A stretch of DNA of 64,000 nucleotides from an uncultured Clostridia bacterium (GTDB lineage: Bacteria > Bacillota > Clostridia > Peptostreptococcales > Anaerovoracaceae): NCBI GenBank assembly GCA_934255135.1, contig CAKQMV010000008.1:1-64000 (forward strand). The letters run 5' to 3'. The first letter of the stretch is position 1, and every line of letters begins with the position of its first letter. Positions 8,189-56,864 of the stretch are shown piece by piece. Under the pieces are notes generated by a model. That model made no database searches and was not told the origin of the DNA. It worked only from the letters and a program-made list of their open reading frames with translations. A program made the translations under genes and the position numbers.

Positions 8189-8203
8189 TTAAATGATTAT
8201 AGG

Positions 8204-8237: not shown

Positions 8238-8254
8238 GTACAGGGTTAGAAAGT

Positions 8255-28544: not shown

Positions 28545-28573
28545 TTGACTATAGAAGCATAAGAACCTACAAT
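28545..28573 (+). promoter_or_regulatory. Promoter (TTGACT, 17 nt, TACAAT) driving the nfl-hyp operon leader
   Basis: The sequence reads ttgactatagaagcataagaacctacaat. Confidence 0.5.
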
Positions 28574-28579
28574 ATAGGT

Positions 28580-28730
28580 ATCTGATACGAAACGTAACAC
28601 TTGAGTTGAAGATACGCCATGCAATATAGCTTAAAGGATGTCGGTGAACCGGCCAGAGGCTGCTTTACCAATCGTCCGCTACGATATGTAATACAAGAGG
28701 CAGTATCTTCAATTGCGAAGATACTGTTTT
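28580..28730 (+). ncRNA. Roughly 150-nt 5' leader ending in a strong intrinsic terminator. Candidate riboswitch or attenuator of unknown class.
   Basis: A structured region (ggatgtcggtgaaccggccagaggctgc…cgtccgc) is followed by cagtatcttc-aattgc-gaagatactg and a T6 run (28690-28730). This lies 50 nt before the TTG start of the first operon gene. Confidence 0.4.
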
Positions 28731-28778
28731 TTATTTTGTTATATAGAAGAGATTTTGTTATATAGAGGAGGTCATCCC

Positions 28779-29027
28779 TTGAACGGAAATAGAATTGCGA
28801 TAATCGGAATAATAATCGAGAAGAGCGAATCGGTTGAGAAGGTTAACGCTCTTTTGCACGACTACAGTGATGTAATTGTTGGAAGAATGGGTGTTCCCTG
28901 CAAGGATAGGGGAGTCAGCATTATAAGCGTGGCTCTCGATGCAACACAGGATTCAATCAATACGCTTGCGGGAAAGCTTGGTCGAATCGATGGTGTTTCA
29001 AGCAAGGCGCTATGCGTGTCGAAGTAG
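28779..29027 (+). CDS. TM1266-like small regulator (the family called putative iron-only hydrogenase system regulator, with an ACT/NikR-C-like fold)
   Basis: 82-aa ORF from TTG at 28779 with a perfect GGAGG 7 nt upstream (LNGNRIAIIGIIIEK…VIVGRMGVP…ISVALD). The six-frame ORF from 28713 has no RBS. Confidence 0.5.
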   Translation: MNGNRIAIIGIIIEKSESVEKVNALLHDYSDVIVGRMGVPCKDRGVSIISVALDATQDSINTLAGKLGRIDGVSSKALCVSK

Positions 29028-29039: not shown

Positions 29040-29786
29040 ATGAGAAGGATAGCAATATACGGCAAGGGCGGTATAGGCAAGTCAACAATCTGCTCTAATC
29101 TTGCATCAGCAATGGCTGCGGACGGATTTAAGGTAATGCAGATCGGCTGCGACCCGAAGGCAGATTCAACAGCACTTCACAGGAAGGGGGTTAAGCTTCC
29201 TACAGTTCTTGACACAATGAGAGCGAAGGGAAGTGACTGGGGCCTTGATGAGGTTGTACATGTAAGCGATGATGGAGTTTTCTGCATCGAAGCTGGTGGA
29301 CCGGTTCCTGGACTTGGCTGTGCCGGCAGAGGAATCATCACAGCACTTGAGAAGCTTGAAGAGAAAGGCCTGTATGAGAAGTATGAGCCTGATGTGATTC
29401 TATACGATGTTCTCGGAGACGTTGTGTGCGGAGGCTTCAGTATGCCAATGAGATCAGGCTATGCAGATACTGTATATGTTGTGACCTCAGGTGAGAACAT
29501 GTCAATCTATGCGGCGGCTAACATTGCGATGGCTATAAGCAACTTCAGAGGTAGAGGATATGCGAAGCTTGGAGGTCTTATCCTTAACAGAAGAGATGTC
29601 AGAAACGAAGAGGATAAGGTAAGAGAGCTTGCAGCAGACCTTAAGACAGAGATTATTTCAGATATCCCAAGGTCATCTGATATCCAGGATGCGGAGGATG
29701 CCGGCGAGACTATCGTAAGACTGATGCCAGGCTCTGAGGTATCAGAGATTATTAAGAAGACTTCACGCAGAATCCTTTCTGAATAG
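29040..29786 (+). CDS. NifH/BchL/CfbC-family nitrogenase Fe-protein-like ATPase (copy 1)
   Basis: Walker A (GKGGIGKST), cluster cysteines (GLGCAGRG and VVCGGFSMPMR), and NifH-like length and pattern. Confidence 0.85.
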   Translation: MRRIAIYGKGGIGKSTICSNLASAMAADGFKVMQIGCDPKADSTALHRKGVKLPTVLDTMRAKGSDWGLDEVVHVSDDGVFCIEAGGPVPGLGCAGRGIITALEKLEEKGLYEKYEPDVILYDVLGDVVCGGFSMPMRSGYADTVYVVTSGENMSIYAAANIAMAISNFRGRGYAKLGGLILNRRDVRNEEDKVRELAADLKTEIISDIPRSSDIQDAEDAGETIVRLMPGSEVSEIIKKTSRRILSE

Positions 29787-29854
29787 CAGGATAACAGGAC
29801 AACAGAACAACAACCATTAAACATTAAACAGTTTAGTAACAGAGGCTAATCAGA

Positions 29855-32380
29855 ATGAAGGATATGATTAATACAGAATCATTAAGAATAGAAGATACGA
29901 CTTTCCCAGCTCCATGGAAGAGTCAGCTGGAGTTCAGCTCTCCAGCGAGAGGAACGTGGAACATCGTTCACACGGGAATGCTTATTCCGGAAAGCCACCA
30001 GATTTTTGTCTGCGCGAAGGGCTGCCTCAGAGGTGTAGTTCTTACGGCTGCCGAGATGGGCGAGATGGGAAGATACTCGGCACTTGAGATCAGAGAAGAG
30101 AATGTTCTTAACGGCGATATGGAGACAATGATGATAGACGGCGTTACAGATATCATCGAGAAGCTGCCGGTAAGACCTCGTGCTATAGAGCTTTTTATAA
30201 GTTGTCAGCATTTCTTCTTAGCATATGATCAGAAGCTTGTATTCAGAACTCTTAAAGAGAAGTTTCCGGATATAAGCTTTGTGGACTGCTACATGATTCC
30301 AACTCTTCGTAAGAGCGGAATTACACCGGATCAGAGGATGAGAGTTCAGATGTACAGAATGCTCGAGAAGGGACATATGTCACCTTCGAAGATAAACCAC
30401 ATCGGCTCGAATCACAGGATCAGAAGCAGCTCGGAGATATATGCTTTTGCCCGTAGAAACGGATACATTTTAAGATCCATTCACGACTGTGAGAGCTTCG
30501 ATGAGTACCTTGAGATGGCAGATGCGTGCTTTAACATCGTGACTGAGCCGCTTGCACTTAAGGCTGCAGAGGATATGGAAGCAAGACTCGGTATTCCTTA
30601 CGCATATGTGCCTAACGTGTTCAGATTCTCAGATATCGAGGAGGCTTACAGGAAGCTTTCTCTTGTAACCGGCGATCTTGCACCATACAGAATGCATGCT
30701 CAGGTTGAGATTGACAAGACTAAGAAACTTATCGGTGACGCTGAGATCGTGCTTGATTACACATTTACATTTAGAACGCTGAACCTGGCTAGATTCCTTG
30801 TCGAAAAGGGCTTCAACGTGACCGATATTTACATCGACAGCTTCCTGCCTGAAGATGAGGATGACTGGAAGCACCTTAAAGAGAACAGACCTGGCATAAT
30901 GATTCACCCGACGAACAGACCTTCGATGAGATTTGAGAAGGCCGGAAGAACTGATGCGATTGCACTCGGACAGAAGGCGGCTGAATTTGCGGGAACAGAT
31001 CATTTTGTGAATATTGCTGAAGGTGGCGGACTTTTCGGCTTTGCTGGAGTAGCGGAGCTTATGGAGCTTATGCGAGATGCATATATAAATGAGAAGGACA
31101 GACGAGAGGTCATTCAGAAGAAGGGCTTTAATCAGAGAAGTCTTCTAGATGAATCGGAGTGCCTATGCTCATCGGAGCCTCGAATCAGCAGTCTTACCTC
31201 AACAGGAATCAGAAGCTCTGCGAGCCTTATACCGACATATTCATCGGACGAATTCGGTGCATGCTCATCGCTTTATGAGCTCGGCGGAATGGTAGTAATG
31301 CACGATGCATCGGGTTGCAATTCAACTTATACAACTCATGACGAGCCAAGATGGTACGACCACCAGAGCATGATATATATATCGGCAATTTCTGAGATGG
31401 AAGCTATCATGGGAGACGACGATAAGCTGATCAAGGACATGACAGATGCGACAGAGGAGCTTCATCCAAGGTTTGCGGCAATCGTCGGAGCACCGATACC
31501 TTACATGACAGGAATCGACCTCGATGCGATTTCAGAAATCCTTAAATCAAAGCTTGAAATTCCGGTTTACGGCATCCACGCCAACGGAATGAATGATTAT
31601 ACGAAGGGAATAGAGATGGCCCTTGAGGCACTGACAGACGACCTCACGGAGGCACCGAAGGAAAATTCAGGCGCACACGACAGGGTCAGAGTCAACCTCC
31701 TTGGAATCACGCCACTTGATTACGCAAATCCATCGAATATGGATGAGCTTTATAAGTGGCTTTCCGAAAACGGCATGATCAAGCACTCAAGCTTCACGAT
31801 GGATTCATCAATCGAAGAGATCAAAGATGCTGCGAATGCTGATGTGAACCTGGTTCTGTCATCGGGAGGCCTTAAGACTGCGAAGAAGTTCAAGCGCCTT
31901 TACGGAATTCCATATGTGATAGGAGCACCTTTGGGCCGTGGATATGCGACGGAGCTTGCGAAGAATCTTAAAGACGCAGCTTCGGGCCAAAAACCTGGTT
32001 CAGCGACATGTGAGCGTCCCGCTTCGGCCGATGTTTTAATCATCGGAGAGGCTGTAACATCAGTTTCGCTCGCAAGAGCACTCGAGCTTGACCTTGGAAT
32101 AAGAGCAAGCGTTGCAGCAACAGTAAGCTGCAGCGATGAAATATTAAGAGCGGGCGACAGATTTACACCATGCGAGGATGCTGTGATAGAGGCTTTAGAT
32201 GAGCTTAAACCAGGAGCTGTAATTGCAGATCCTTTCTACATGGCAATCGTGAATGAGAAGACATTATTTATACCACTTCCTCACGAGGCCTTCTCAGGAA
32301 GAATTTTTGATAAGGAAGCACCGTGTCTGGTTAACACAGACCTTGATGCACTGCTTCAGGTAGGAGAGATAAATGCTTAA
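29855..32380 (+). CDS. Nitrogenase component-1-like oxidoreductase: a single-chain fusion of NifD/E-like (N-terminal half) and NifK/N-like (C-terminal half) domains
   Basis: 841 aa. The N-terminal half is homologous to ORF 33115-34413 ([15 protein letters not shown]…[13 protein letters not shown] vs [15 protein letters not shown]…[13 protein letters not shown]). The C-terminal half is homologous to ORF 34414-35466 ([18 protein letters not shown] vs CDAGGCTGNVCGFDEPRW). Confidence 0.7.
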
Positions 32381-33122
32381 ATTAGCGGTATATGGTAAAG
32401 GCGGAATAGGAAAATCAACAACAACGGCAAATCTTGCAGCGGCTTTTGCAAGCCTCGGCAAGAAGGTAATCCAGATAGGTTGCGATCCTAAGGCTGACTC
32501 GACAATGAACCTTCTTTCAGGAACTCCTGTTCAGTCAGTAATGGATTACATGAGAATTAACGATTGCGAGCCGGAGAGACTCGACGAGATTGTAAAGGAA
32601 GGCTACGGCGGAATCGTCTGCATCGAGACAGGCGGACCTACACCGGGACTTGGCTGCGCAGGAAGGGGAATCATAACAACATTCTCACTTCTTGAAGACC
32701 TCGAGCTCTTTGAGACTTACAAGCCTGACGTTGTGCTATACGACGTACTTGGAGACGTTGTGTGCGGAGGCTTTGCAGCACCTATAAGAGAGGGTTACGC
32801 AGAAGAGATTCTTATCGTAACATCAGGCGAGAAAATGGCGCTTTATGCGGCAAACAATATCGCCAAGGCTGTCGAGAATTTCGAGGACAGAGGATATGCG
32901 AGCGTTCGCGGAGTCGTTATGAACAGACGTAACGTTGAGAACGAGGAAGAGAAGGTCAAGGCCTGGGCTGATGAGGCGGGCTTCCCCGTTATCGCAGACA
33001 TTCCAAGAAGCAACGATATTATTAAATACGAAGATCAGGGCATGACAGTTATCGAAGGCGATAGAAGCCTTGAAGTGAGTCAATGCTACATAAAACTTGC
33101 AAAGAGGTTACTTAATGAATAA
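32373..33122 (+). CDS. NifH/BchL/CfbC-family nitrogenase Fe-protein-like ATPase (copy 2)
   Basis: [17 protein letters not shown] and [12 protein letters not shown] motifs. ATG overlaps the upstream stop (ATGCTTAA). Confidence 0.85.
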
Positions 33123-34413
33123 ACAGGATGCATTTTATATAACAGCAAGAGATCTTGCAGACGGAGGAATCGAAGGCGTTCCGTCAGAGCTTAAGTCGCA
33201 GGATCACCTAATCTACAGCTCACCTGCAGCGCTGAGCTTTAACTCACCTGGAGCACAGGGCTTCGGTGTCAAAAGAGCGGGTCTTGCAGTCCCAGGCTCC
33301 GTGATGCTGCTGGTTGCTCCGGCGTGCTGCGGACGTAACACAACTATGCTTGCAGAGCTCGGTTCATATGCTGACAGATTCTACTATCTTCTTCAGGATG
33401 ATACAGATATCATCACTGGAAGACACCTTAACAGAATCTCACAGGCAGTTAAGGATGTGGCAGATTTCCATGAAGAGTCGACTGGAACAAGACCTAACGT
33501 GGTAATGATCTGTATCACATGCGTAGACGCACTTCTCGGAACAGATATGGACAGAGTCTGCAGAAAGGCTTCAGAGTTTGCAGGACTTCCTGTTCTTCCA
33601 TGCTATATGTATGCGCTTGAAAGAGAGGGAAGAGTTCCTCCGATGACAGCGGTAAGAAGAACAGTGTACCAGCTCCTCGAGCCAAGGGAGAAGAAGAACA
33701 CAACAGTAAATCTTCTCGGACACTTCGCACCGCTTAACGATGATTCAGAAATCTACGAGCTTCTGAGAGGCATCGGAGTTAAGAAGATTAACGAGATATC
33801 AAGATGCGAGGATTTCGATGAGTATCTTGGAATGGCTGAGGCGAACTTCAGTATTATCCTGAACCCAGAATCAAGACTTGCTGCAGAGGATATTGCCAAA
33901 AGACTTGAGATTCCATCAGTCGAGCTTACAAGAATGTACAGAATCGACAAGATCAGAAAGCAGTATCAGCTCTTTGCGGGAGCTATCGGAGCTAAGATAG
34001 ATGACTCTAAGTTCTACGAGGAAGCGGCGGCGAAGGTAGAAGCTTTTGCCCGTGAGAACAAGGGTAAGAGGGTTGCAATCGGAGAGTGCATGAATGCGGA
34101 TTCATTCGAGCTTGCACTTGCAATGACTGAGTACGGACTTACAGTAACTGAGATTTACGGCACAGTTTCGGCTGAGAGAATGCCATATATCAAGATGCTT
34201 GCAGAACTTAGTCCTGAGACAAGAATCTACACCAATCTCGAGCCGTCAATGCTTTATTACGATTCAAGCGAGCTTCCATGCGACTTTACCATCGGAATTG
34301 ATGCCGGATATTATCATCCGGATGCGCCTAATGTTCCTTGGAATCTCGAGGTTCAGCCATGGGGCTACAACGGTCTTATCCGTCTGATTGAAGAAATAGA
34401 AGGAGTGCTCTAG
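33115..34413 (+). CDS. Nitrogenase component-1-like subunit (NifD/NifE/BchN-like)
   Basis: About 432 aa, paralogous to the N-terminal half of the 841-aa fusion. Start at MNKQDAFY (AGAGGT RBS) overlaps the nifH-like stop. Confidence 0.7.
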
Positions 34414-35466
34414 ATGAAGGGTTTACTAAGAGTTATGTCACCGTTTGCGCCTGACCAGTCAGGTGCGGCTTCGGTGTTTTACGATATGAATGCGATTACA
34501 GTCATATGCGATGCCGGCGGATGTACCGGAAACGTGTGTGGCTTCGATGAGCCGAGATGGCAGAAGAATGCGAGACCGATTTTCAGTGCGGGACTTCGTG
34601 ATATGGATGCGATTCTCGGAAGAGATGACAGACTGGTCGACAAGCTTAAGCTTGTTTCAGATAAGAGCGATGCGGATTTTGCTGCTATAATCGGAACTCC
34701 CGTGCCGGCAGTTATTGCAACTGACTTTAAGGCTCTCAAAAAAATGGCATCAAAGCGTTGCGGCATCCCAGTTGTAACGTGTGAGTGCACAGGAACTAAT
34801 CTCTACGACAAGGGTGAGGAGATGGCTTACCTCGAGCTTATGAAGACGTTCACAAGGGACATGGATGTGTGCGAGGGAAGAGTCGGAGTCCTCGGTGCGA
34901 CACCACTTAACTTCAGCGATATTGAAGCTGACAAGCTTATCAGAAAACACTATATGGAAGAAGGCTTTAGCGAGGTGCTTGTCTACGGCATGGGCGACGG
35001 ACTTGATTCGGTAAGAATGGCGGCGTCATGCGAGATGAATATCGTAGTTTCAGCTTCGGGACTTGCTCCGGCAAGATGGCTTAAGAAAAATTATGGGACA
35101 CCTTACAGAGTTGAGTGCCCTTTTGCAGGCGAGGCTGCAGCTAAGGCGGCAGGAGTGCTTAAGCATTCAAAGGTTCTTATCGTACATGAGCAGGTTGCTG
35201 CAAACAGCCTTAGAGATGCGATGGAGGACTGCGACGTTACAGTAGCGACCTTCTTCACACTCGATAAGAACATTGCAAATGAAGGCGATGTGCTGGTGGA
35301 GACAGAGGCTCAGTTTATAGAGCTTGTCGAAAATGGAGGCTACGATGCAGTTATCTGCGACGAGCTTCTTAGAAGAGCCGTAAAGGATGGAACCTACGGC
35401 ATTTGGATTAACCGAAGACATTTTGCAGTCTCCGGAAACCTGGAGGAAGGATTATGCGAACTCTAA
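34414..35466 (+). CDS. Nitrogenase component-1-like subunit (NifK/NifN/BchB-like)
   Basis: 350 aa, paralogous to the C-terminal half of the fusion. Cys-rich CDAGGCTGNVCG and VVTCECTG segments. Confidence 0.7.
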   Translation: MKGLLRVMSPFAPDQSGAASVFYDMNAITVICDAGGCTGNVCGFDEPRWQKNARPIFSAGLRDMDAILGRDDRLVDKLKLVSDKSDADFAAIIGTPVPAVIATDFKALKKMASKRCGIPVVTCECTGTNLYDKGEEMAYLELMKTFTRDMDVCEGRVGVLGATPLNFSDIEADKLIRKHYMEEGFSEVLVYGMGDGLDSVRMAASCEMNIVVSASGLAPARWLKKNYGTPYRVECPFAGEAAAKAAGVLKHSKVLIVHEQVAANSLRDAMEDCDVTVATFFTLDKNIANEGDVLVETEAQFIELVENGGYDAVICDELLRRAVKDGTYGIWINRRHFAVSGNLEEGLCEL

Positions 35467-37760
35467 GAATCTGCGTGTACGGAATAGTGCAGGGTGTAGG
35501 CTTCAGACCTTTTATTTCAAGACTTGCTGACAGACACGGAATACTCGGAAGCGTGGCGAACAGAGGTTCATATGTTGAGATTTTTGCCTGCGGAGAGGAC
35601 GATGAGCTCGATGCTTTTAAGGCTGGAATTGAAGCTGAGGCTCCACCAAGATCTGCAATTCTTAAAGTAACAAGCAGAGATATATCGGATAAGGCTCCTG
35701 CTTATCATGATTTTCAGATAATAGAGAGCACTGCGGAGAGAGGCGACATCTTCGTATCACCGGATATTGCGACATGTCCGGAATGCAGAAGAGAGCTTTT
35801 TGACAGTGGCAACAGAAGATATATGCATCCGTTCATTAACTGTACGGCATGCGGACCTAGACTTACGATTCTCGATGCGATGCCTTATGACAGGGAACGT
35901 ACGAGCATGAAGGAATTTCCAATGTGTCCGGAGTGCGAGTTTGAATATACTCATCCGGAGACGAGAAGATATGACGCGCAGCCCGTGTGCTGTAACGACT
36001 GCGGACCAGAGGTCTATATAGTCGGAACTGATATCAGAGGAAGAGATGCGATTACACGCGCAAGACAGGCCGTTATTGATGGTGAGATTGTTGCGATAAA
36101 AGGAATCGGAGGCTTTCACCTCTGCTGCGATGCGACTTCGGAGGAGGCTGTAGCAAGACTCAGAAGGCTTAAGAGAAGACCTGCTAAGCCATTTGCAATT
36201 ATGGCTAGAAGTCTTGAAGCGGTGGATAGAATCTGCAGCATTCCATCAGATTCTGTAAGAGAGCTTCTCGATGGACACAGCAAGCCGATTGTTCTTCTTG
36301 AGAGAATAAATGAAGGCGTGCTCGCACCATCGGTTGCACCTGATAATCCGAATGTTGGTGTTATGCTTCCATACGCACCGGTTCAGATGCTGATGTTTGA
36401 CTATAACGACGATCTTGACATCGGAACAGATTATTTTGTAATGACGAGCGGAAATGTATCTGGAGCACCGATCTGCAGAACAGATGAGGATGCAGTAGCT
36501 GAGCTTTCGGATTTCTGCGATGTGATATTAAGTCACAACAGAACGATAAGGCTTCGTGCGGACGACTCTGTTGTGGATGTATATAAGGATGAGCCTTACA
36601 TGATCAGACGTTCAAGAGGCTTCGCTCCTCTGCCTGTTATGACAGAAGAGGAGATTGAGGCATCAGTTCTCGCTGTTGGAGGAGAGCTTAAGAACACATT
36701 CTGCATCGGAAAGGATCAGCTGCTCTATGAATCATCGTTCGTCGGCGATATGGCTGATGTAAGAACGGTAAGAGCTCTGAATGAGTCAATAGACAGAATG
36801 GCAGAGCTTCTTGAGACAGACCCTGAGGTGGTGGTGTGCGACCTTCATCCTAAATACAATACGACCGAGGTTGCTGAAAGATATGCAGATAAGCATAATA
36901 TTCCTCTTATCAGACTTCAGCATCATTATGCTCACATTCTGTCGTGCATGGCGGAAAATGATTATACAGACGAGGTCATCGGCCTGTCTATGGACGGAAC
37001 AGGCTATGGAACAGACGGAACTATCTGGGGTGGCGAAGTTCTCCTGACAAGAAGAGACGGCTTCGAGAGACTTTCTCATATCGATCCGTTTATGCAGGCC
37101 GGCGGTGACCTCTCTGCAAAGGAGGGCTGGAGAATTGCAGCTTCTATGATAGGTTCGCTTTTCGGTGATGATGCAGAGGTAATCTCTGAGAATCTCGGAA
37201 TCTGCAGCGAATCAGAGTTTAAGCTTATTCGCACAATGACAGAGCGAGGAATTAACTCTGTGAAGTCGACGAGTGCGGGAAGACTCTTTGATGCAGTAAG
37301 TGCGATCCTTGGAGTAAGAAGAGCGTCAAGCTTCGAGGGTGAAGCGGCTACAACACTGCAGTTTAGAGCAATTGAAGCTAAGGGCGAATCAAAGTACCCA
37401 GGCCAAAACCGTGGTGACGGTTCGATAGCTTCCGGTGAGATTGTTAAATGGCTCGTAGGAGAGATGCTTCAGGCAACCGATAAAGATCAGACGCAGCGGG
37501 AGCTTGCGTGGGCCTTCCACGAAGCTTTTGCCCGTGAGATGGCGGACTCGGCACTTTACTGGTCGGAGAAGACAGGAATAAAGACAATAGCACTAAGCGG
37601 CGGTGTTATGCAGAATACTCTGCTGCTTGGAATGCTTGAAGAATACCTTGAGGAGAGAGAACTTAAGGTTATAAGACATCATATGATTCCACCGAATGAT
37701 GGCGGAATCGCGCTTGGGCAGGCGCTATATGCCCGTTGGGAGGTAGGAAAATGTGTGTAG
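35454..37760 (+). CDS. hypF: Carbamoyltransferase HypF ([NiFe]-hydrogenase maturation: acylphosphatase, 2 Zn fingers, YrdC and Kae1-like domains)
   Basis: 768 aa. Acylphosphatase start (ICVYGIVQGVGFRPF), two CxxC x18 CxxC fingers, YrdC-like and C-terminal Kae1-like regions. Confidence 0.85.
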   Translation: MRTLRICVYGIVQGVGFRPFISRLADRHGILGSVANRGSYVEIFACGEDDELDAFKAGIEAEAPPRSAILKVTSRDISDKAPAYHDFQIIESTAERGDIFVSPDIATCPECRRELFDSGNRRYMHPFINCTACGPRLTILDAMPYDRERTSMKEFPMCPECEFEYTHPETRRYDAQPVCCNDCGPEVYIVGTDIRGRDAITRARQAVIDGEIVAIKGIGGFHLCCDATSEEAVARLRRLKRRPAKPFAIMARSLEAVDRICSIPSDSVRELLDGHSKPIVLLERINEGVLAPSVAPDNPNVGVMLPYAPVQMLMFDYNDDLDIGTDYFVMTSGNVSGAPICRTDEDAVAELSDFCDVILSHNRTIRLRADDSVVDVYKDEPYMIRRSRGFAPLPVMTEEEIEASVLAVGGELKNTFCIGKDQLLYESSFVGDMADVRTVRALNESIDRMAELLETDPEVVVCDLHPKYNTTEVAERYADKHNIPLIRLQHHYAHILSCMAENDYTDEVIGLSMDGTGYGTDGTIWGGEVLLTRRDGFERLSHIDPFMQAGGDLSAKEGWRIAASMIGSLFGDDAEVISENLGICSESEFKLIRTMTERGINSVKSTSAGRLFDAVSAILGVRRASSFEGEAATTLQFRAIEAKGESKYPGQNRGDGSIASGEIVKWLVGEMLQATDKDQTQRELAWAFHEAFAREMADSALYWSEKTGIKTIALSGGVMQNTLLLGMLEEYLEERELKVIRHHMIPPNDGGIALGQALYARWEVGKCV

Positions 37761-37957
37761 GATTAGCGGCTAAGGTTGTTGGTATCAAGGATGGTGCGGC
37801 AGTTGTTGATGCATCAGGTGCAAGACGTGAGGTATCAGCTGAGATGATCGAGAATCTTGAACCGGGCGATTACGTAATGGTTCATGCAGGAATTGCAATT
37901 GCGAAGATTACTTCTGACGATACAGAAGAGACAGATGAACTGATGGAGATGCTCTAA
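37751..37957 (+). CDS. hypC: Hydrogenase assembly chaperone HypC/HupF
   Basis: Begins MCVGLAAKV (the essential Cys2). About 68 aa. ATG at 37751 with a GGGAGG RBS. Confidence 0.8.
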   Translation: MCVGLAAKVVGIKDGAAVVDASGARREVSAEMIENLEPGDYVMVHAGIAIAKITSDDTEETDELMEML

Positions 37958-39015
37958 TGGAAGAAAGAAAGCTTACAGCGAGAGAAATAATTGAGCAGTA
38001 CGACGGCCCGAAGATCAGAATTATGGAGGTGTGCGGAACGCATACACACGAAATCTTCAAGCTTGGAATCCGTAATCTGCTCCCGGAGAATATAGAACTT
38101 ATTTCGGGACCCGGATGTCCGGTGTGCGTAACTCCTTGCGGCTTTATCGACATGGCGTGCGAGCTTGCACTCGATAAGGGCTGTACAGTATGCACCTTCG
38201 GAGACCTTATAAGAGTTCCGGGAACCGAGATGAGCCTTGCAGATGCGAGAACTAAGGGTGCTGAGATTAAGATTGTGTATACAGCACTCGATGCGCTTGA
38301 TTTTGCAAGAAATAATCCTGATAAGGACGTTGTGTTCCTCTCTGTTGGATTTGAGACCACAACTCCTGCGGCCTGCCTTACTGTAAAGAAGGCTAAGGAA
38401 GAGGGAATCACCAACTACTCGATTCTTACAGCAAACAAGACTATGCCTAACGCGTACAACGCTCTTAAGGGAAGTGCAGATGCCTTTCTTTACCCTGGTC
38501 ACGTAAATGCGATCACAGGTGAAGAGGATTGCGAGAGACTCGCTTACGAAGAGGGAATCTCAGGCGTTATCGCAGGTTTTACGGCCAAAGAGCTTCTTAC
38601 TGCAATCGCGGTAATAATCCGCAGACTCGAGAAGGGTGAGCCGTTCTTCGTGAATTGCTATCCAAGAGTTGTAACAAGGGAAGGAAGCAAGCCTGCAAAG
38701 AAGCTTATAGACGAGACAATGGAGCTTACAGATTCAACATGGAGAGGACTTGGAGTTATCCCTAAATCAGGTCTTAAGCTCCGCGAGGAATACAAGGATT
38801 ACGATGCATCATACAAGTATGATGTGCCTTACACAGACGGCAAGCCTAATCCGGGATGCCGCTGCGGAGACGTGCTTCAGGGAAAGTGCAAGCCTTGTGA
38901 CTGTTCGCTTTTCGGCAAGATGTGCACACCACTTCACCCGGTTGGAGCTTGTATGGTAAGTAACGAAGGAAGCTGCTCAGCGTTCTATCAGTATGGAGGA
39001 ATAATCAATGGATAA
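37957..39015 (+). CDS. hypD: Hydrogenase formation protein HypD
   Basis: CGTHTHEI (CGxH), GPGCPVC and C-terminal Cys motifs. TAATG coupling to hypC. Confidence 0.85.
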   Translation: MEERKLTAREIIEQYDGPKIRIMEVCGTHTHEIFKLGIRNLLPENIELISGPGCPVCVTPCGFIDMACELALDKGCTVCTFGDLIRVPGTEMSLADARTKGAEIKIVYTALDALDFARNNPDKDVVFLSVGFETTTPAACLTVKKAKEEGITNYSILTANKTMPNAYNALKGSADAFLYPGHVNAITGEEDCERLAYEEGISGVIAGFTAKELLTAIAVIIRRLEKGEPFFVNCYPRVVTREGSKPAKKLIDETMELTDSTWRGLGVIPKSGLKLREEYKDYDASYKYDVPYTDGKPNPGCRCGDVLQGKCKPCDCSLFGKMCTPLHPVGACMVSNEGSCSAFYQYGGIING

Positions 39016-40012
39016 TGTAGTAAAGCTAGCTCATGGTGGCGGCGGAAAGCTGACATCTGAGCTTATCGAGAAGGTATTTAAGAAGCATTTTGCAAACGAG
39101 GCATTTACAGCAGACGATGCTGCAGTTTTAAACATCGGAAGTGGAAACATCGCAATGACTACAGACGGATTTATCGTATCACCGTTTGAGTTCCCTGGCG
39201 GAAACATAGGAAAGCTTTCAATCTGCGGAACTGTTAACGACCTTGCCTGCATGGGAGCAAAGCCTCTTTATATGACATGTGCTTTTGTCATCGAGGAGGG
39301 CTTCCCAATGGACAAGCTTGAGGAGATTGCTGCTCTCATGGAGAAGACTGCTGCAGAGGTTGGCGTTAAGATCGTTGCCGGTGACACTAAGGTTGCAGGT
39401 AAGGGTCAGGTAGACAATGTGTTTATCACAACTACAGGAATCGGCGTTCTGACTGAGGGTGTTAAGACTTCAGGTGCATTTGCAGAGAAGGGTGACAAAA
39501 TCATCGTTACTGGCGATGTTGGACGTCACGGCTGCACAATCCTTCTTGAAAGAGAGGACCTTGGAATCGAGGCTGATATCACGAGCGACTGTGCACCGTT
39601 GTGGAACACTGTAAAGTCTGTAATGGATGCGGCTCCTGACGTTCATGTAATCAGAGATGCTACAAGGGGCGGAGTTGGAACAGTTCTTTACGAAATCGCC
39701 GGCGAGAGTAACGTCGGAATCAGAATTGAGTCAGCAGATATTCCTGTTGATCCTGCTGTAGCAGGCGTATGCGGAATGCTCGGTCTTGATCCGCTCTACC
39801 TTGCCAACGAGGGAACAATGGTTATTATTGCACCTGCTTGTAGTGCTGATGCAGTGCTTACTGCACTTCATAATGATAAGTACGGAAAGAATGCAGCTAT
39901 TATTGGAGAGGTTACTGACGAGATGGCAGGAAGCGTAGTTCTCAGGACTGAGATCGGAACAGAGACAATGCTTCCACAGCCAGGCGGAGAGCTTCTTCCA
40001 AGAATCTGCTAA
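39008..40012 (+). CDS. hypE: Hydrogenase maturation factor HypE (AIR-synthase-like carbamoyl dehydratase)
   Basis: PurM-like fold motifs and the diagnostic C-terminal …PRIC. Confidence 0.85.
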   Translation: MDNVVKLAHGGGGKLTSELIEKVFKKHFANEAFTADDAAVLNIGSGNIAMTTDGFIVSPFEFPGGNIGKLSICGTVNDLACMGAKPLYMTCAFVIEEGFPMDKLEEIAALMEKTAAEVGVKIVAGDTKVAGKGQVDNVFITTTGIGVLTEGVKTSGAFAEKGDKIIVTGDVGRHGCTILLEREDLGIEADITSDCAPLWNTVKSVMDAAPDVHVIRDATRGGVGTVLYEIAGESNVGIRIESADIPVDPAVAGVCGMLGLDPLYLANEGTMVIIAPACSADAVLTALHNDKYGKNAAIIGEVTDEMAGSVVLRTEIGTETMLPQPGGELLPRIC

Positions 40013-40036: not shown

Positions 40037-41092
40037 ATGAATAATCTTGAGAAGCTAAAAGAATTAGTGCTCAAGCTTAAAGACGAAAAGAGACTCGATA
40101 AGGATGAGTGGATACTCCTTATCGAGTCACAAAGTCCTGAGCTTATGGAATTTGTCTCTGAACACGCAAGAAATGTAAGAGAAGCTCACTACGGCAAGGA
40201 TGTCTATGTGAGAGGTCTTATCGAGATAAGCAATTATTGTAAGAATGACTGCTACTACTGCGGAATCAGAAAGAGCAATCTTAATGCGCACAGGTACAGA
40301 CTCTCTAAGGAGACGATACTTGACTGCTGCCGTGAGGGCCATGAGCTTGGCTACAGGACTTTTGTCATGCAGGGCGGCGAGGACATGCACTATAGCGATG
40401 ACCTCGTCTGCGATATAGTTTCATCCATCAAGGCAGAATTTCCAGACTCTGCAGTGACTCTTTCAATAGGAGAGAGGTCACGCGAGAGCTATGCAAGATT
40501 TAAGAAAGCAGGTGCTGACAGATATCTTCTTAGACATGAGACTGCATGCGAGGCTCATTATAGAAAACTTCACCCAGATGAGCTTACTCTTGCGAACAGG
40601 AAAAGATGCCTGTATGATTTAAAGGAACTCGGCTTCCAGGTGGGAGCCGGTTTTATGGTGGGCGCGCCATACCAGACCGTAGATAATCTTGCAGAGGATA
40701 TGATTTTCCTTAAGGAGCTTAGTCCTCATATGGTCGGCATCGGCCCGTTTATTCCACACCACGACACACCGTTTAAAGATATGCCGGCGGGAAGTGCTGA
40801 GCAGACGCTTTATTTTCTCAGCCTTACAAGACTGATGCTTCCATCAGTTCTGCTTCCGGCGACAACTGCACTTGGTACAATCTCTGACAATGGAAGAGAG
40901 CTTGGAATGCTTGCCGGTGCAAACGTTGTTATGCCCAACCTTTCGCCAGCGGAGGTGAGAGGCGATTATCTTCTTTATGATAACAAACTGTGCACCGGAG
41001 ATGAGGCTGCGCAGAATCTTGCTAATCTTAATAAGAGAATGGAGTCGGTCGGCTTTAATATTTCAATGACTCGTGGTGACTGGAAAGAATAA
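40037..41092 (+). CDS. hydE: [FeFe]-hydrogenase H-cluster radical SAM maturase HydE-like
   Basis: 351 aa. CKNDCYYCGIR matches the HydE-type CxxxCxYCGxR motif rather than BioB CPEDCxYC. BioB/HydE-like length. Confidence 0.65.
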   Translation: MNNLEKLKELVLKLKDEKRLDKDEWILLIESQSPELMEFVSEHARNVREAHYGKDVYVRGLIEISNYCKNDCYYCGIRKSNLNAHRYRLSKETILDCCREGHELGYRTFVMQGGEDMHYSDDLVCDIVSSIKAEFPDSAVTLSIGERSRESYARFKKAGADRYLLRHETACEAHYRKLHPDELTLANRKRCLYDLKELGFQVGAGFMVGAPYQTVDNLAEDMIFLKELSPHMVGIGPFIPHHDTPFKDMPAGSAEQTLYFLSLTRLMLPSVLLPATTALGTISDNGRELGMLAGANVVMPNLSPAEVRGDYLLYDNKLCTGDEAAQNLANLNKRMESVGFNISMTRGDWKE

Positions 41093-41116: not shown

Positions 41117-42856
41117 ATGAAATTCAAGAGAAATAATCTTTCTAAAATGCTAAGCTACTATAAGCCTTACATGGGACTGTTCCTTGCTGATATGTTCTTT
41201 GCGACAATCAGCTCCGCGATAGCACTGTGTATTCCGCTTGTAGTAAGATACGTTACTTCGACGCTCGTTTACATGAAGCCGGAGGTTATTCTTGCACAGA
41301 CTTTAAAGCTTGCTATTCTGATGCTTGTGCTTGTGCTTGTTGATTTCGGTTCAAGATACTTTATCGGTAACTACGGACATGTGATGGGTGCGAAGATAGA
41401 ATATAACATGCGAGCAGAGATCTTCGACCATATGCAGAAGCTGTCATTCAGGTTCTACGATGATGCCAAGGTCGGACAGCTGATGAGCAGAGTCACAACA
41501 GACCTGTTTGATATCACTGAGCTTCTCCACCACGGTCCTGAGAACATTCTTCTTTCACTTCTCAAGATCTGCGGAGCTCTTGCAATCCTGTTTAGCATCA
41601 ATCCGAAGCTTACATTAGCGGCATTTATTATTCTGCCGTTTATGTTCATATATGCATACGTTCTTAACAAGAAGATGAGAAGGGCATTTAAGCTTAACAG
41701 AGTTAAGATCGCCGAAATCAACGGACAGATCGAGGACAACTTCTCAGGAATCAGAGTGGTAAAGTCATTTGCCAATGAGGATGTTGAGAATGGCAAGTTC
41801 AAGGTAGGAAATGATGGCTTCCTGTCATCAAAGAAGAACAATTACAGATATATGGGCCTTTTCCAGGCCGGAATTCAGGCGTTCAATACGCTGATTACAG
41901 TGTGCGTTATCATAATCGGCTGCGTTCTTATTGCAAGGGACAACCTTAATGTCAGCGATTTCGTAACGTTCCTTCTTTATATTAACGTATTCACTGATCC
42001 TATCAAGACTCTTGTAGATTTTACAGAGATGTTTCAGAACGGATACACAGGCTTCGAAAGATTCAGAGAGATTATGGATATCGAGCCAGATATTCAGGAC
42101 GATCCTGATGCAGAGGAGCTTGGAGATGTAGACGGTAACATAGTATTTGATGATGTATCGTTCTCATATAACGATAATTCTGGCGAGGTTCTTTCGAACG
42201 TAAATCTCGATATCAGACCGGGACAGTATATCGCACTTGTCGGTTCATCCGGTGCAGGTAAGACTACGCTTTGTTCACTTATTCCTCGTTTCTACGATGT
42301 GGATTCAGGAAGAATTCTGATTGACGGACACGACATCAGACATCTCAAGCAGAGAAGCCTCCGTAACAAGATCGGAATCGTTCAGCAGGACGTGTATCTT
42401 TTTGCCGGAACAATCTATGATAACATCGCATACGGTAAGCCGGGTGCGACAAGAGAAGAGGTCATCGAGGCTGCAAAGAATGCGAATGCGCATGACTTTA
42501 TAATGTCACTTGAGGACGGCTACGATACAGATATCGGACAGAGAGGAATCAAGCTCTCAGGAGGTCAGAAGCAGAGACTTTCGATTGCTAGAGTATTCCT
42601 TAAGAATCCACCTATCCTTATCTTTGATGAGGCAACATCGGCACTCGATAACGAGAGCGAGAGAATCGTTCAGGAGTCACTTGAGAAGCTCGCGGCTAAT
42701 AGAACAACTATCGTAATCGCCCACAGACTTTCAACTATCAGAAATGCTGAGAAGATTCTCGTTCTCACAGAGGATGGAATCGCAGAAAGCGGTACGCACG
42801 AGGAACTCCTTCACAAGGGCGGCGTGTACGAGCAGCTTTACAGAGGAACTATCTAA
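41117..42856 (+). CDS. ABC transporter ATP-binding/permease protein (type I exporter, MsbA/LmrA-like half-transporter)
   Basis: Six TM helices followed by an NBD with GSSGAGKTT, LSGGQKQRLSIAR and ILIFDEATSALD. Confidence 0.8.
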   Translation: MKFKRNNLSKMLSYYKPYMGLFLADMFFATISSAIALCIPLVVRYVTSTLVYMKPEVILAQTLKLAILMLVLVLVDFGSRYFIGNYGHVMGAKIEYNMRAEIFDHMQKLSFRFYDDAKVGQLMSRVTTDLFDITELLHHGPENILLSLLKICGALAILFSINPKLTLAAFIILPFMFIYAYVLNKKMRRAFKLNRVKIAEINGQIEDNFSGIRVVKSFANEDVENGKFKVGNDGFLSSKKNNYRYMGLFQAGIQAFNTLITVCVIIIGCVLIARDNLNVSDFVTFLLYINVFTDPIKTLVDFTEMFQNGYTGFERFREIMDIEPDIQDDPDAEELGDVDGNIVFDDVSFSYNDNSGEVLSNVNLDIRPGQYIALVGSSGAGKTTLCSLIPRFYDVDSGRILIDGHDIRHLKQRSLRNKIGIVQQDVYLFAGTIYDNIAYGKPGATREEVIEAAKNANAHDFIMSLEDGYDTDIGQRGIKLSGGQKQRLSIARVFLKNPPILIFDEATSALDNESERIVQESLEKLAANRTTIVIAHRLSTIRNAEKILVLTEDGIAESGTHEELLHKGGVYEQLYRGTI

Positions 42857-42871
42857 AGAGGTAAATAATTG

Positions 42872-43780
42872 ATGGATAACATGCTTTATGTTGCACCGCT
42901 TGAGGGTCTGACTATGGCGGTGTGGAGAAAAGCGCATAGAGATGTGTTCGGCGGAGCGGATAAATATTTCGCTCCGTTTATTTCTCCAAATCAGAATATG
43001 TCGCTTACGGAGAAGGAGAGAAGAGATATCACGCAGGATGAGACAGATCTCGTTCCGCAGGTTCTAGTGTCGAATGTAGAACATTTCGCGTGGGCTTGTG
43101 AGACTCTTTTAGAGCTTGGGTATACGGAGCTTAATCTGAACTTCGGCTGCCCGAGTGGAACTGTCACTGCCAAAAGAAAAGGTTCAGGCCTTTTAAGAAC
43201 CCCGGATGCTCTCGATGAGTTTCTCGATGGAGCTTTTGAGGTGTCCCGTGGCATGACAATTTCTGTAAAGACAAGAATAGGTTATGAGGACTCGGACAGA
43301 TGGCCCGAGATTCTTAGCATTTATGAGAAATATCCGATAAGCGAGCTTATCATTCATCCGAGAATCCGTAAGGATTTCTATAAGGGCGAGCCAGATAGAG
43401 AGCTGTTCCTTGAGGCGATGAACGAAAGCCCGCTTAAGCTTGTATATAATGGAGATATTGCATCGCCGGAAGATCCGGCTCTTTCCTATGGCTGTGATGT
43501 GATGGTTGGAAGAGGGCTTATTGCAAGACCATCGCTATTTCGTGAAATAAGAGGAGGAGAGCCTGCGAGCATGGATGAACTTAAGCGCTTTCACGATATG
43601 ATTCTAGAAGGCTATATGGAATATATGCCGGGCGAGCTCCCGCTTCTACATAGAATGAAGGAGTTCTGGCACTATTTTTCGGAAAGCTTTGATGCTGATC
43701 CGAAGCTGGTCAGGAAAATCCTTAAGACTAAGAAGGTTTCAGAATATATGAACGCGGTGAATTCGATTTTTGCCGGATAG
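42872..43780 (+). CDS. dus: tRNA-dihydrouridine synthase family protein
   Basis: Dus-like motifs (LNFGCPSGTV…KTRIGYED). Start choice ATG 42872 (RBS AAGAGGT); the six-frame ORF starts at 42869 (TTG). Confidence 0.7.
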   Translation: MDNMLYVAPLEGLTMAVWRKAHRDVFGGADKYFAPFISPNQNMSLTEKERRDITQDETDLVPQVLVSNVEHFAWACETLLELGYTELNLNFGCPSGTVTAKRKGSGLLRTPDALDEFLDGAFEVSRGMTISVKTRIGYEDSDRWPEILSIYEKYPISELIIHPRIRKDFYKGEPDRELFLEAMNESPLKLVYNGDIASPEDPALSYGCDVMVGRGLIARPSLFREIRGGEPASMDELKRFHDMILEGYMEYMPGELPLLHRMKEFWHYFSESFDADPKLVRKILKTKKVSEYMNAVNSIFAG

Positions 43781-43803
43781 AATAATTGACGGAGAGAGAA
43801 AAC

Positions 43804-44685
43804 ATGATTCAGGATATTGGAAAAGGAAGATTTGATAATCAGTATAAGAATGTAAAAGCGACAGAGGAGGATATGGCTGTCGTTTTCGCCGGTACATGCA
43901 AGAGGGACGATTCAATTCTTGCCGGCGTTGAATGGGCAGATGGCGTAGCTAAGACTGCATACTTTCCGACTGTAGGCGAGCTTTCAGAATGTGGATACAC
44001 AGCTGATGACTTTATTTATCTCTTTTCAATCGACGATCAGAGATATTTCATGCTCGACAGATACAGCGAAACAATCGATGGAGTAGAGAGACTTGCAGAT
44101 TATGAGTTTACTGCAATTAGAACGCTTACTAAGGTTGAGCCGATGGAGCTTGGCATGGCAGCGATTACTGCCTATCATCTCTTCGACTGGTACAGAATCA
44201 ATCAGTTCTGCGGACGCTGCGGCGGCAGGATGGTTCACGACTCTAAGGAACGTGCCAAGCGATGCACATGTGGCTGCGGTAATATGGTATTCCCTAAGAT
44301 CTGCCCTGCGTGCATAATTGCAGTTCGTAATGGTGATACAGTAATCACTTCAAGATATGCAGGAAGAGCTTACAGAGGTCGTGCGCTGATTGCTGGATTC
44401 TGCGAGATTGGTGAGACTGCGGAGGAGACAGTTGCAAGAGAGGTAATGGAGGAGATTGGACTTAAGGTCAAGAACATTACTTATTACGGAAGTCAGCCAT
44501 GGGGAGTTGAGTCAGATCTTCTTCTCGGTTATTATTGCGATGTTGATGGCTCGACAGAGATTCACATCGATGAGGAGGAGCTTGCGATTGCGGAGTGGAC
44601 ACATCGTGAAGACCTCGACCCTGAAGCAAATATGAGAACGCTTACCGGTACGATGCTTAATGCATTCAGAACCGGCGAAATTTAA
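43804..44685 (+). CDS. nudC: NAD+ diphosphatase NudC (NUDIX hydrolase with zinc ribbon)
   Basis: Zinc ribbon (CGRCGGRM…CTCGCG) and a Nudix box (GFCEIGETAEETVAREVMEEIGL). ATG at 43804 after a GGAGAG RBS; the six-frame ORF extends from 43786 (TTG). Confidence 0.7.
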   Translation: MIQDIGKGRFDNQYKNVKATEEDMAVVFAGTCKRDDSILAGVEWADGVAKTAYFPTVGELSECGYTADDFIYLFSIDDQRYFMLDRYSETIDGVERLADYEFTAIRTLTKVEPMELGMAAITAYHLFDWYRINQFCGRCGGRMVHDSKERAKRCTCGCGNMVFPKICPACIIAVRNGDTVITSRYAGRAYRGRALIAGFCEIGETAEETVAREVMEEIGLKVKNITYYGSQPWGVESDLLLGYYCDVDGSTEIHIDEEELAIAEWTHREDLDPEANMRTLTGTMLNAFRTGEI

Positions 44686-47479: not shown

Positions 47480-48937
47480 TTATCTGTTCACAGTCTCAAA
47501 TCTCTCTGTGATCTCAAGGTGTGTTGCTTCGTCAGCATGGCTGTCGATGTCAGCATCCTGCTTAGGTGTGTGCTTCAGACATCCTGCACCACCTGTACAT
47601 CCGCCGCTGCAAGCCATTCCCTCAATGAAGTTCTGAACGAGCAGATCCTTATTAGCTCTTGTAAGGATTGGCTTAATCTTATCAAGTCCTGATACGCAGA
47701 TAGGGTTAACCTCGAACTCAGAACCTCTCTCCTTAAGAGCCTGAACTGCAGATGCAGCTACTCCACCTGAGTGAGCGAAGCGACGACCGAATCCTGTAGC
47801 CTGATCCATCTCGCTCTTCTCCTGCATCTCAACGTCAATCTCTCTGCTGTCAAGAAGTGCAAGCAGCTCCTCAAAAGTGATTACACTGTCAACATATGGT
47901 GAAACGCTATCCTTAAGAACCTCAGCCTTCTTCGCTGTGCAAGGTCCGATAAAGATAACCTTGGCATCAGGATTGTCAGCCTTGATAATTCTTCCAAGCT
48001 CTGCCATAGGTGACAGGTTGTGTGAAATTGAAGGTACGAGGGCAGGGAATCTGTTCTCTACGTACTTTACGAAAGCAGGGCAGCATGATGTAAGAAGGCG
48101 ACCCTTCTCCTCAAGCTCTGCTGACTCCTTGTAAGCTATAATATCAGCTCCAAGAGCTGCCTCGTATACCTCAGCAAATCCGAGCTTTCTGATTCCTGTG
48201 ATAACCTGTCCAAGGTCGACAGGTGCAAACTGTGATGCAATTGCAGGAGCAACAATAGCAATTACAGGATACTCAGTGTTGTCCTTGCTTCCTTTAATGA
48301 TGTCAATTACATCAGCGATATATGATTTGTCAATTGGTGCACCGAACGGACATCTGTTCATGCAGACACCGCATGATGTGCACTTGTCATAGTCAATAAC
48401 AGCCTCACCTGTCTCAGCCATACAGATAGCGTCAGCCTTGCAGGCTTTCTCGCAAGGTCGCTTAAAGTTAGTGATGGCGCTGTATGGGCATGCCTTGGCA
48501 CACTGTCCGCACTCAACGCACTTCGACTTGTCGATTACTGCGTGGTTGTTTTCAAAAGTGATGGCGCCGAGCTTGCATGCTCCCTGGCACTCGTGAGCAA
48601 GACAGCCTCTGCAAAGGTTAGTTACAGTGTGACCTGCCTCAGGACACTCATCACAGATAAGACCGATAACCTCGATAATGTGATCGCTGTTATGGTTCCC
48701 ACCAAGAGCAACTCTGATTCTCTCGGCGAGCTTCGCCTTATCCTTATAGATACAACAGCTTGTTGAAGGTTCATCAGGAAGAATTGTCTTAGCTGCGATA
48801 TCATCAAAAGATCTGAAAATATCTTCGCCTGCCCAGAGCTTTCTGGCAACTTCGGTAAGAACTCTGTTTTTCATGATCTGAACATTGGTGTCAAATTTTC
48901 TGGCATCAAATTTTCTTGCCTCGTCGTATTCTTTCAT
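47480..48937 (-). CDS. hydA: [FeFe] hydrogenase, monomeric, with an N-terminal Cys-rich ferredoxin-like region (group B-like)
   Basis: H-cluster motifs L1 (TSCCPAFV), L2 (GPCTAKKAE) and L3 (EGMACSGGCTGG), plus 2x CxxCxxCxxxCP ferredoxin motifs. Start at MKEYDEARKF (48937) with an AAGGAG RBS; the six-frame ORF extends to 49129. Confidence 0.8.
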   Translation of the reverse strand: MKEYDEARKFDARKFDTNVQIMKNRVLTEVARKLWAGEDIFRSFDDIAAKTILPDEPSTSCCIYKDKAKLAERIRVALGGNHNSDHIIEVIGLICDECPEAGHTVTNLCRGCLAHECQGACKLGAITFENNHAVIDKSKCVECGQCAKACPYSAITNFKRPCEKACKADAICMAETGEAVIDYDKCTSCGVCMNRCPFGAPIDKSYIADVIDIIKGSKDNTEYPVIAIVAPAIASQFAPVDLGQVITGIRKLGFAEVYEAALGADIIAYKESAELEEKGRLLTSCCPAFVKYVENRFPALVPSISHNLSPMAELGRIIKADNPDAKVIFIGPCTAKKAEVLKDSVSPYVDSVITFEELLALLDSREIDVEMQEKSEMDQATGFGRRFAHSGGVAASAVQALKERGSEFEVNPICVSGLDKIKPILTRANKDLLVQNFIEGMACSGGCTGGAGCLKHTPKQDADIDSHADEATHLEITERFETVNR

Positions 48938-56251: not shown

Positions 56252-56578
56252 TTGGCACATATTCATTCGGAAGAGGAGCTTCTGATTAATGAAATCGGAG
56301 AAGAAGAGCTTCTTGAGATGGCAGATCTTTTTAAGATGTTCGCTGATTCGACAAGAATAAAGATTCTCTACGATCTTCTTGGTGGCGAGAAGAACGTAAC
56401 AGAGATATGCGATGATCTTGAGATGAATCAGTCAGCGATTTCCCATCAGCTTAAGCAGCTTAAGGCATCGAAGCTTGTTAAGGGAAGACGTGATGGTAAG
56501 GCTATTATCTATTCACTGGCAGATGACCATGTCAGAACAATTATCGCAATGGGACGAGACCATATTGAAGAATGTTAA
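56252..56578 (+). CDS. ArsR/SmtB-family metalloregulator (alpha5-site type, CzrA/NmtR-like)
   Basis: HTH motif (STRIKILYDL…EICDDLEMNQSAISHQLKQL). C-terminal DDHVRTIIAMGRDHIEEC (D/H…H…E alpha5 ligands). TTG start with a GGAGGTG RBS. Confidence 0.75.
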   Translation: MAHIHSEEELLINEIGEEELLEMADLFKMFADSTRIKILYDLLGGEKNVTEICDDLEMNQSAISHQLKQLKASKLVKGRRDGKAIIYSLADDHVRTIIAMGRDHIEEC

Positions 56579-56612
56579 CTAATTATTATTACAAATAACG
56601 GAGGATAATATC

Positions 56613-56831: not shown

Positions 56832-56864
56832 AAAGCTATCATAACTATTTGGAGGACTTGGAAG

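Follow-up and report, generated by a model that had tools for sequence, protein, structure and literature searches.

In the current work, a stretch of 64,000 nucleotides (nt) from an uncultured gut Clostridia bacterium (assembly GCA_934255135.1, contig CAKQMV010000008.1, positions 1 to 64,000 of the forward strand; hereafter referred to as the window) was analyzed with respect to hydE, an open reading frame (ORF) located at 40037..41092 on the + strand, which starts with ATG and encodes a radical S-adenosylmethionine (SAM) protein of 351 amino acids (aa). HydE is a radical-SAM enzyme that helps to build the iron cofactor of [FeFe] hydrogenases. Judged by its sequence, the window protein is a canonical, ordinary HydE, encoded behind an array of nitrogenase-like (nfl) and hypFCDE genes that is headed by a TM1266-family gene, and its placement there appears to exemplify a recurrent, probably selected association of [FeFe]-maturase genes with nfl-hyp clusters. 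The genes and features concerned are, in order along the window:

28545-28573, + strand: promoter-like site TTGACT-17-TACAAT ahead of the TM1266-family gene
28545..28745 (promoter included), + strand: structured 5' leader (168 nt) ending in a 16-bp terminator-like hairpin (28695-28732) and a U-run
28779..29027, + strand: TM1266-family small protein ("[FeFe] hydrogenase system putative regulator"; TIGR03959, 112.4 bits, cut-off 60.8)
29040..29786, + strand: NifH-like ATPase/reductase, copy a (TIGR01287, 303 bits, under the nifH cut-off)
29855..32380, + strand: 841-aa fusion of two NifD/K/E-like (Oxidored_nitro) halves (PF00148, two stretches)
32373..33122, + strand: NifH-like ATPase/reductase, copy b
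33115..34413, + strand: NifE-like protein (432 aa in the gene calls of public assemblies)
34414..35466, + strand: NifN/E-like protein, 350 aa
35454..37760, + strand: HypF carbamoyltransferase (TIGR00143, 739 bits)
37751..37957, + strand: HypC (starts MC...)
37957..39015, + strand: HypD (TIGR00075, 404 bits; CGxH, GPGCPVC, GFETT and PGHVN motifs)
39008..40012, + strand: HypE, with a C-terminal PRIC (TIGR02124, 423 bits)
40037..41092, + strand: HydE, H-cluster maturase (TIGR03956, 569.8 bits; E = 2e-85 to T. maritima HydE structures; functional residues conserved)
41117..42856, + strand: ABC exporter with fused transmembrane and ATPase domains, MsbA-like, under every equivalog cut-off
42869..44685, + strand: genes for a Dus-family and a NUDIX (NAD+ diphosphatase-like) protein, at spacings of 12 nt and 5 nt
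47480..48937, - strand: monomeric group-B [FeFe] hydrogenase (TIGR04105, 508.6 bits, cut-off 450)

The score of the hydE product against TIGR03956, the NCBIfam HydE equivalog model (cut-off 254.6), covers profile positions 2-339 of 340, whereas the models of the sister families return 155.4 bits for PylB (cut-off 348.2), 89.3 bits for BioB (225) and 50.2 bits for HmdB (320.9), and those of ThiH and HydG return 69 and 68 bits, both far under their cut-offs. Among solved structures the nearest are those of HydE from Thermotoga maritima (TM1269; PDB 3CIX, 3IIZ, 7O1P), followed at a distance by PylB (E = 4e-26). The radical SAM motif reads C68-KND-C72-YY-C75-GIR, its three cysteines being aligned with C63, C67 and C70 of the T. 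maritima protein (hereafter Tm). The original prediction, made from the letters alone, had recognized CKNDCYYCGIR as a HydE-type motif, which is borne out by the presence of the motif and by the model score alike. In a neighbor-joining tree built without bootstrap, the window HydE nests among HydEs of canonical operons and groups with that of locus L007 (comparison loci carry L numbers), and the other nfl-linked HydEs (L048, L072 and L045) are interspersed among HydEs of canonical context. Its identity to the nfl-linked HydEs is 68, 58, 58 and 53%, as against 65% to the HydE of a canonical operon (L085); a separate clade of nfl-linked HydEs was thus not seen, either in these values or in the tree, which carries no bootstrap.

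Over 295 aligned positions the protein is 47% identical to TmHydE, and R54, C63/67/70, V105, Q107, T134, R155, L157, R159, E161, M224, T268/269, R279, M291 and K309 (Tm numbering) are all conserved, these positions being invariant or nearly so across 128 close HydE homologs; Tm M224, M291 and K309 correspond to M232, M299 and K317 of the window protein. Structural and computational work has assigned roles in the HydE reaction to such residues, namely Fe(I) handling to M224/M291, radical relay to K309 and CN contacts to R54/T134/R155/T269 (PMC10114646, PMC11826987). The window protein therefore shares with TmHydE the CX3CX2C motif and all residues concerned with complex-B, Fe(I), radical relay and CN contact; with PylB, BioB and HmdB it shares the TIM-barrel radical SAM fold and CX3CX2C, while possessing the HydE-specific Met and Lys residues. 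It differs from TmHydE in its C-terminal auxiliary Fe-S cluster site, where two of three cysteines are lacking, Tm C311/C319/C322 being represented by C319/N327/N330. The original prediction had proposed these cysteines as a check, and the outcome is divided, the first being retained and the other two replaced by Asn. The full set is present in 50 of the 128 close HydEs and missing from 78 (61%), for which reason the pattern says nothing about function and was dropped as a discriminator; loss of the auxiliary cluster is in any case not expected to affect catalysis according to a HydE modeling paper (PMC11826987).

hydE is the eleventh gene of the same-strand array that starts with the TM1266-family gene at 28779. 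The upstream gene hypE ends at 40012 (...LPRIC*), and the hydE ATG follows 24 nt on, preceded by a GGAG-type ribosome-binding site; 24 nt also separate the hydE stop at 41092 from the start, at 41117, of the 579-aa ABC exporter. No terminator-like site was found in the hypE-hydE gap or in the hydE-ABC gap, in a region (27-46 kb) where terminator-like matches are not enriched (12 found versus 12.8 expected in shuffled sequences). As for an internal hydE promoter, a 10-of-12 consensus match exists at 39801-39828, but promoter-like matches number 26 versus 29.1 in shuffles, and since they are no commoner than in shuffled sequence this match was not used as evidence. On these grounds the two linkages asserted in the original prediction, of hydE coupled to hypE at the end of the nfl-hyp operon and of hydE with the MsbA-like exporter gene without an intervening terminator, stand. 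The spacing suggests that hydE has been appended to the 3' end of the TM1266-nfl-hypFCDE operon and shares its transcript: the genes from NifH-like copy b through hypE overlap or abut (-13 to 0 nt), while hydE and the later genes are set off by gaps of 5-24 nt. A foreign origin of hydE and the ABC gene, considered on the basis of composition, found no support, as their G+C content (0.44-0.46) matches that of the core genes (0.45-0.49) and of the window (0.45), with no break in composition at either gene. The Dus-family and NUDIX genes are probably the tail of the same transcript and no part of the system.

The canonical arrangement of hydE beside hydG or hydF is absent here, the neighbors of hydE being hypE and the ABC exporter gene. 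A scan of roughly 50 large ORFs of the window gave no match to the HydG or HydF families; the sole HydG-like match is ThiH at 4100-5350, which scores 513 bits against the ThiH model and 170 against that of HydG. Neither hydG nor hydF occurs in the 10 kb to the left of the window (overlapping public contig L090) or in the 6.5 kb to its right (L093), where nusA-infB-rbfA-truB-rpsO-pnp are found. The claim that hydE is a local orphan thus holds over about 80 kb (window and both flanks), and hydG and hydF just beyond the window edge, which the original prediction had named as an observation that would speak against it, were not found over those flanking distances. HydE has a likely client nearby, as the group-B [FeFe] hydrogenase (HydA) gene is located 6.4 kb downstream of hydE on the opposite strand and its product has intact H-cluster motifs, TSCCP and EGMACSGGCTGG (ExMxCxxGCxxG). 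Both the hydrogenase gene and the TM1266-family gene heading the operon had been missed in the original prediction.

In order to judge how usual a lone hydE is, 80 related hydE loci were fetched from metagenomes, 63 of which had enough flank to be informative. A hydG gene is adjacent in 34 of these, hydF only in 6 (that is, hydG or hydF in 40/63) and neither in 23. Homologs that are 63-66% identical to the window protein illustrate this variety, occurring in a TM1266-hydE-hydG-hydF-lyase operon (L085), as a hydE-hydF pair (L088) or alone (L086). Published surveys agree, in that only about 56% of HydF proteins have another hyd gene encoded no more than 20 ORFs away from hydF (PMC11736057), and the hydE, hydF and hydG locus tags of eight acetogenic Clostridium are widely separated (PMC9431212, Table 3). 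A lone hydE is common, and the assumption of the original prediction, which takes hydG and hydF as the usual companions of hydE, is only half correct.

The nfl-hypFCDE cluster was then traced in other bacteria using the window NifE-like protein as anchor. Relatives of this anchor occur in at least 571 GTDB species, and carriers of the cluster include gut Lachnospiraceae and Oscillospiraceae, Anaerobutyricum hallii, Megasphaera and Synergistaceae as well as, among Clostridium, C. ljungdahlii, C. ragsdalei, C. drakei and C. carboxidivorans. The locus set comprised the 80 best-scoring loci with at most 10 kb of flank each, many of them from related metagenome-assembled genomes, some possibly mis-binned, and many truncated at a contig end or at the 10-kb limit of the flank. 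Gene content was determined by tblastn with window queries and coverage thresholds (HydF, HydG and HydE queries being taken from a canonical operon), so that the TM1266 count may miss genes that are short or divergent. The core set consists of two NifH-like genes, two NifD/K/E-like pairs and hypF-C-D-E, all of which are present in the window at 29040-40012; it is complete in 54/80 loci, in two main gene orders. The 841-aa NifD/K-like fusion is also found in the closest relatives (L005-L007, L095 and L097) and is represented by two genes in most other loci.

A hyd maturase gene (hydF and/or hydE) lies less than 1 kb from the cluster in 25/80 loci, the corresponding values being 21/54 for loci with the full core and 11/28 for those with both flanks visible. 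Directly adjacent to the cluster are hydF in 24 loci and hydE in 4, the latter being L007 (hypE-hydE-hydF), L048, L045 and L072 (hydE-hydF-nfl), and a TM1266-family gene was detected in 39/80. A search with the canonical-operon HydG found hydG beside the cluster in 0/80 loci. The maturase gene takes at least four arrangements (upstream or downstream of the NifH-NflD-NflK unit, after hypE, or on the opposite strand), the commonest position being one that abuts the NifH-NflD-NflK unit; the position after hypE, as in the window, is a minority form; in the window the cluster opens with TM1266 and closes with hydE, and hydG is absent. All-against-all clustering of flanking ORFs returned HydF as the only recurrent family outside the core gene set, and in that clustering no HypA, HypB, [NiFe] large-subunit or NifB family recurs nearby. 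The nfl-linked maturases are themselves canonical: HydF scores 568-570 bits (cut-off 326) with its P-loop and CxH...HCxxC motif, and HydE 532-574 bits. The order nfl-hypFCDE-hydE-ABC is kept in relatives whose HydE is 66-67% identical to that of the window, the exporter gene being found at 41117-42856 (+) in the window, at 11100-12839 in L095 and at 11179-12918 in L097; it is absent from the post-hydE position in nfl-hyp loci outside the window clade.

A further locus, L165 (metagenome contig Ga0183095_10260, 7920-17035), has a second kind of nitrogenase-like module embedded among [FeFe] maturase genes, in the order TM1266 - FecCD-type ABC permease - ATPase - HydE - NifH-like - NflD - NflK - periplasmic-binding-protein-like - HydF, with neither hydG nor hyp genes within 10 kb. 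The NflD and NflK proteins of this locus share 42-44% identity with the corresponding halves of the window 841-aa fusion.

Some loci of the comparison set show other neighbors. In L016, L018-L020, L022-L025, L028 and L030, hydF is located upstream of the first NifH-like gene, where the window has TM1266; TM1266 itself was not detected in this subgroup. Genes that are [FeFe] hydrogenase-like lie directly upstream of the cluster in L036 (119-1522) and in L070 and L077 (approximately 7536-8487), their products being 52% and 30% identical to the window HydA.

When set against known systems, the window hydE is positioned behind hypE, unlike T. maritima hydE, for which hydG, hydF and TM1266 are the reference neighbors. 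The canonical Clostridia operon TM1266-hydE-hydG-hydF(-aspA-like lyase), as found in L085, L103 and L112, has TM1266 and hydE in one transcription unit, as appears to be the case here; the window lacks its hydG and hydF, and instead has approximately 11 kb of nfl and hypFCDE genes between TM1266 and hydE. In acetogenic Clostridium (PMC9431212, Table 3) hydE is likewise away from hydG and hydF, and hypCDEF occurs without hypAB; C. ljungdahlii, C. ragsdalei, C. drakei and C. carboxidivorans carry the nfl-hyp cluster, but hydE is not adjacent to it there. With respect to the NifH/NifEN machinery and the HypCDEF proteins of [NiFe] hydrogenases, the corresponding window partners are NifH-like ATPases, NifE/NifD-like proteins and a complete, canonical-looking HypF-C-D-E set, the window Nfl proteins giving only remote matches to solved NifE/NifD (E = 1e-5 to 1e-8). 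One sentence in Dos Santos et al. 2012 (PMC3464626) records that NifHEN-like and hydrogenase maturation proteins are associated, and assigns no function. Searches of open-access papers turned up nothing beyond that paper on nfl-hyp function, and no report linking HydF, HydE or TM1266 with nitrogenase-like genes; the coupling of hydF, hydE and TM1266, though never hydG, to nfl-hypFCDE is thus apparently unreported, with the proviso that silence in open-access papers alone is not proof of novelty.

The explanation favored here, to which we assign a probability of roughly 0.68, is that HydE does its normal job, performing the established reaction for the [FeFe] hydrogenase or hydrogenases of this organism with hydG and hydF located elsewhere, and that its placement is an instance of the recurrent linkage described above. 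Following the scheme taken from established HydE work, a [4Fe-4S] cluster on C68/C72/C75 would cleave SAM, and the resulting 5'-deoxyadenosyl radical would attack the Cys sulfur of the HydG product [Fe(II)(Cys)(CO)2(CN)] (complex-B). The Fe(I)(CO)2(CN)S units so formed would be held on M232 and M299, with K317 acting in the radical relay, and would dimerize to [Fe2(SH)2(CO)4(CN)2], which would then pass through HydF to the [FeFe] hydrogenases, for example the group-B enzyme encoded 6.4 kb downstream. The genes hydG and hydF would be located at other sites in the genome, as is common in Clostridia. The linkage itself would reflect either shared regulation or a shared pathway. Several points weigh on the other side. 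The presence of hydG and hydF in the genome, as well as the copy number of hydE, are assumptions of the scheme, co-transcription is deduced from gene spacing, and the non-random association of hydF, hydE and TM1266 with nfl-hyp, in which hydG never takes part, leaves room for a non-canonical role.

That role could be a direct biochemical one, in which HydE, HydF and the TM1266 protein are a working part of the nfl-hyp system, an explanation that we consider possible though unlikely. It can take two forms: Nfl and HypFCDE might supply an Fe-CO/CN unit that replaces or supplements the complex-B made by HydG, or HydE and HydF might take part in assembling an organometallic cofactor, similar to the H-cluster, for the nitrogenase-like proteins. 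The original prediction had mooted that HydE moonlights on a Hyp-derived Fe(CN)2CO species, and this idea is not baseless, because hydF, hydE and TM1266 recurrently flank nfl-hyp and hydG never does. In favor of a biochemical link, maturase genes adjoin the cluster in 25/80 loci and at least four arrangements with hydG in none of the 80, TM1266 in 39/80 behaves as a shared component, and HydF is the sole recurrent flank family, no HypA, HypB or [NiFe] large subunit recurring with it. The linked HydF and HydE are canonical (532-574 bits), L165 provides an independent metagenome locus that lacks hydG and hyp genes within 10 kb, and five of eight acetogenic Clostridium have HypCDEF and no HypAB, [NiFe] hydrogenase or recognizable canonical HydG (PMC9431212), several species of that set carrying the nfl-hyp cluster. 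The acetogen result, however, comes from motif searches for HydG that were doubted by their own authors (PMC9431212), the loci are phylogenetically non-independent, and 55/80 nfl-hyp loci have no adjacent hyd gene. The chemistry also argues against such a link, since the active site of HydE is unchanged from that of complex-B-using enzymes, and by established chemistry HypCD makes Fe(CN)2(CO), whereas complex-B is a cysteine-bound Fe(CO)2(CN), so that the two differ in ligand stoichiometry; moreover, HydE, HydF and HydG suffice to mature HydA in E. coli (PMC9431212).

A more integrated version, still somewhat more tentative, would place Nfl, HypFCDE, HydE, HydF and the TM1266 protein in one Fe-carbonyl-cyanide pathway, be it a HydG-independent route feeding HydE and HydF or an assembly line for the H-cluster-like cofactor of a nitrogenase-like enzyme, with HydE acting on, or alongside, a Hyp/Nfl-derived Fe-CO/CN species, which would come close to what the original prediction had supposed.

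It appears improbable that the gene order is an accident, hydE having merely landed behind hypE and being read through. The 5-24 nt gaps of hydE and the genes downstream of it, compared with the overlapping or abutting nfl-hyp core, would fit such an origin, as would the apparently unrelated nature of the downstream ABC, Dus and NUDIX genes and the great variability of hydE contexts; against it, relatives with a HydE of only 66-67% identity still show this order, maturase genes turn up repeatedly next to the cluster, in distant taxa and in more than one arrangement, and the linkage is far above a chance level that can be roughly estimated at 2 neighboring positions per approximately 3000 genes.

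The idea that the protein is a HydE-like paralog with an unknown, non-hydrogenase substrate, or a relative of BioB, PylB or HmdB, which could draw on membership of the same radical SAM subfamily and on the replacement of Tm C319 and C322 by Asn, is effectively refuted: the scores of those families are far under their cut-offs (about 155 bits for PylB and 89 for BioB, as against 570 for HydE), the HydE-specific and complex-B residues are all kept, the auxiliary cysteines are likewise missing in 78/128 bona fide HydEs, and the neighbor-joining tree (without bootstrap) nests the protein among HydEs of canonical operons; a placement within BioB is what the original prediction had named beforehand as counting against a HydE.

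Taken alone the gene changes nothing, since its product is a HydE of the textbook kind and hydE genes without partners are common; what could matter is the comparative linkage. The nfl-hypFCDE cluster is widespread and uncharacterized, and it encodes a complete HypFCDE without a [NiFe] hydrogenase partner. If the link were biochemical, it would point to a novel route by which Fe-CO-CN cofactors are made or used, and would be relevant to the reports that hydG is hard to find in some acetogens. Genetically tractable organisms, among them the industrial acetogens C. ljungdahlii and C. carboxidivorans, carry the cluster.

At the 5' end of the operon, the TM1266-family gene is the first gene, with a likely TTG start at 28779 for which a ribosome-binding site can be read. 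The leader preceding it is predicted to fold with a minimum free energy of -51.3 kcal/mol (z = -4.7), and an upstream leader segment (UUGAAGAUAC) repeats the 3' arm of the 28695-28732 hairpin and could form an antiterminator. No Rfam family match to a known riboswitch was obtained for the leader (window and seven related loci), nor was there any blastn match to it in the other fetched loci, those of the same species not covering the leader region. The leader may possibly serve as an attenuator for the operon.

Elsewhere in the window, a thiamine pyrophosphate (TPP) riboswitch (2292-2399, +, 63 bits) precedes a thiamine operon at 2659-8188 (thiF, thiG-like, thiH, thiE, thiD, thiC). A putative nickel-pincer-nucleotide-dependent ornithine cyclodeaminase is encoded at 51822-52916 (+; NF052526, 594 bits, cut-off 440), and a metal-resistance module at 56252-58766 (+) comprises an ArsR/SmtB regulator, a small HMA-domain protein and a heavy-metal P-type ATPase.

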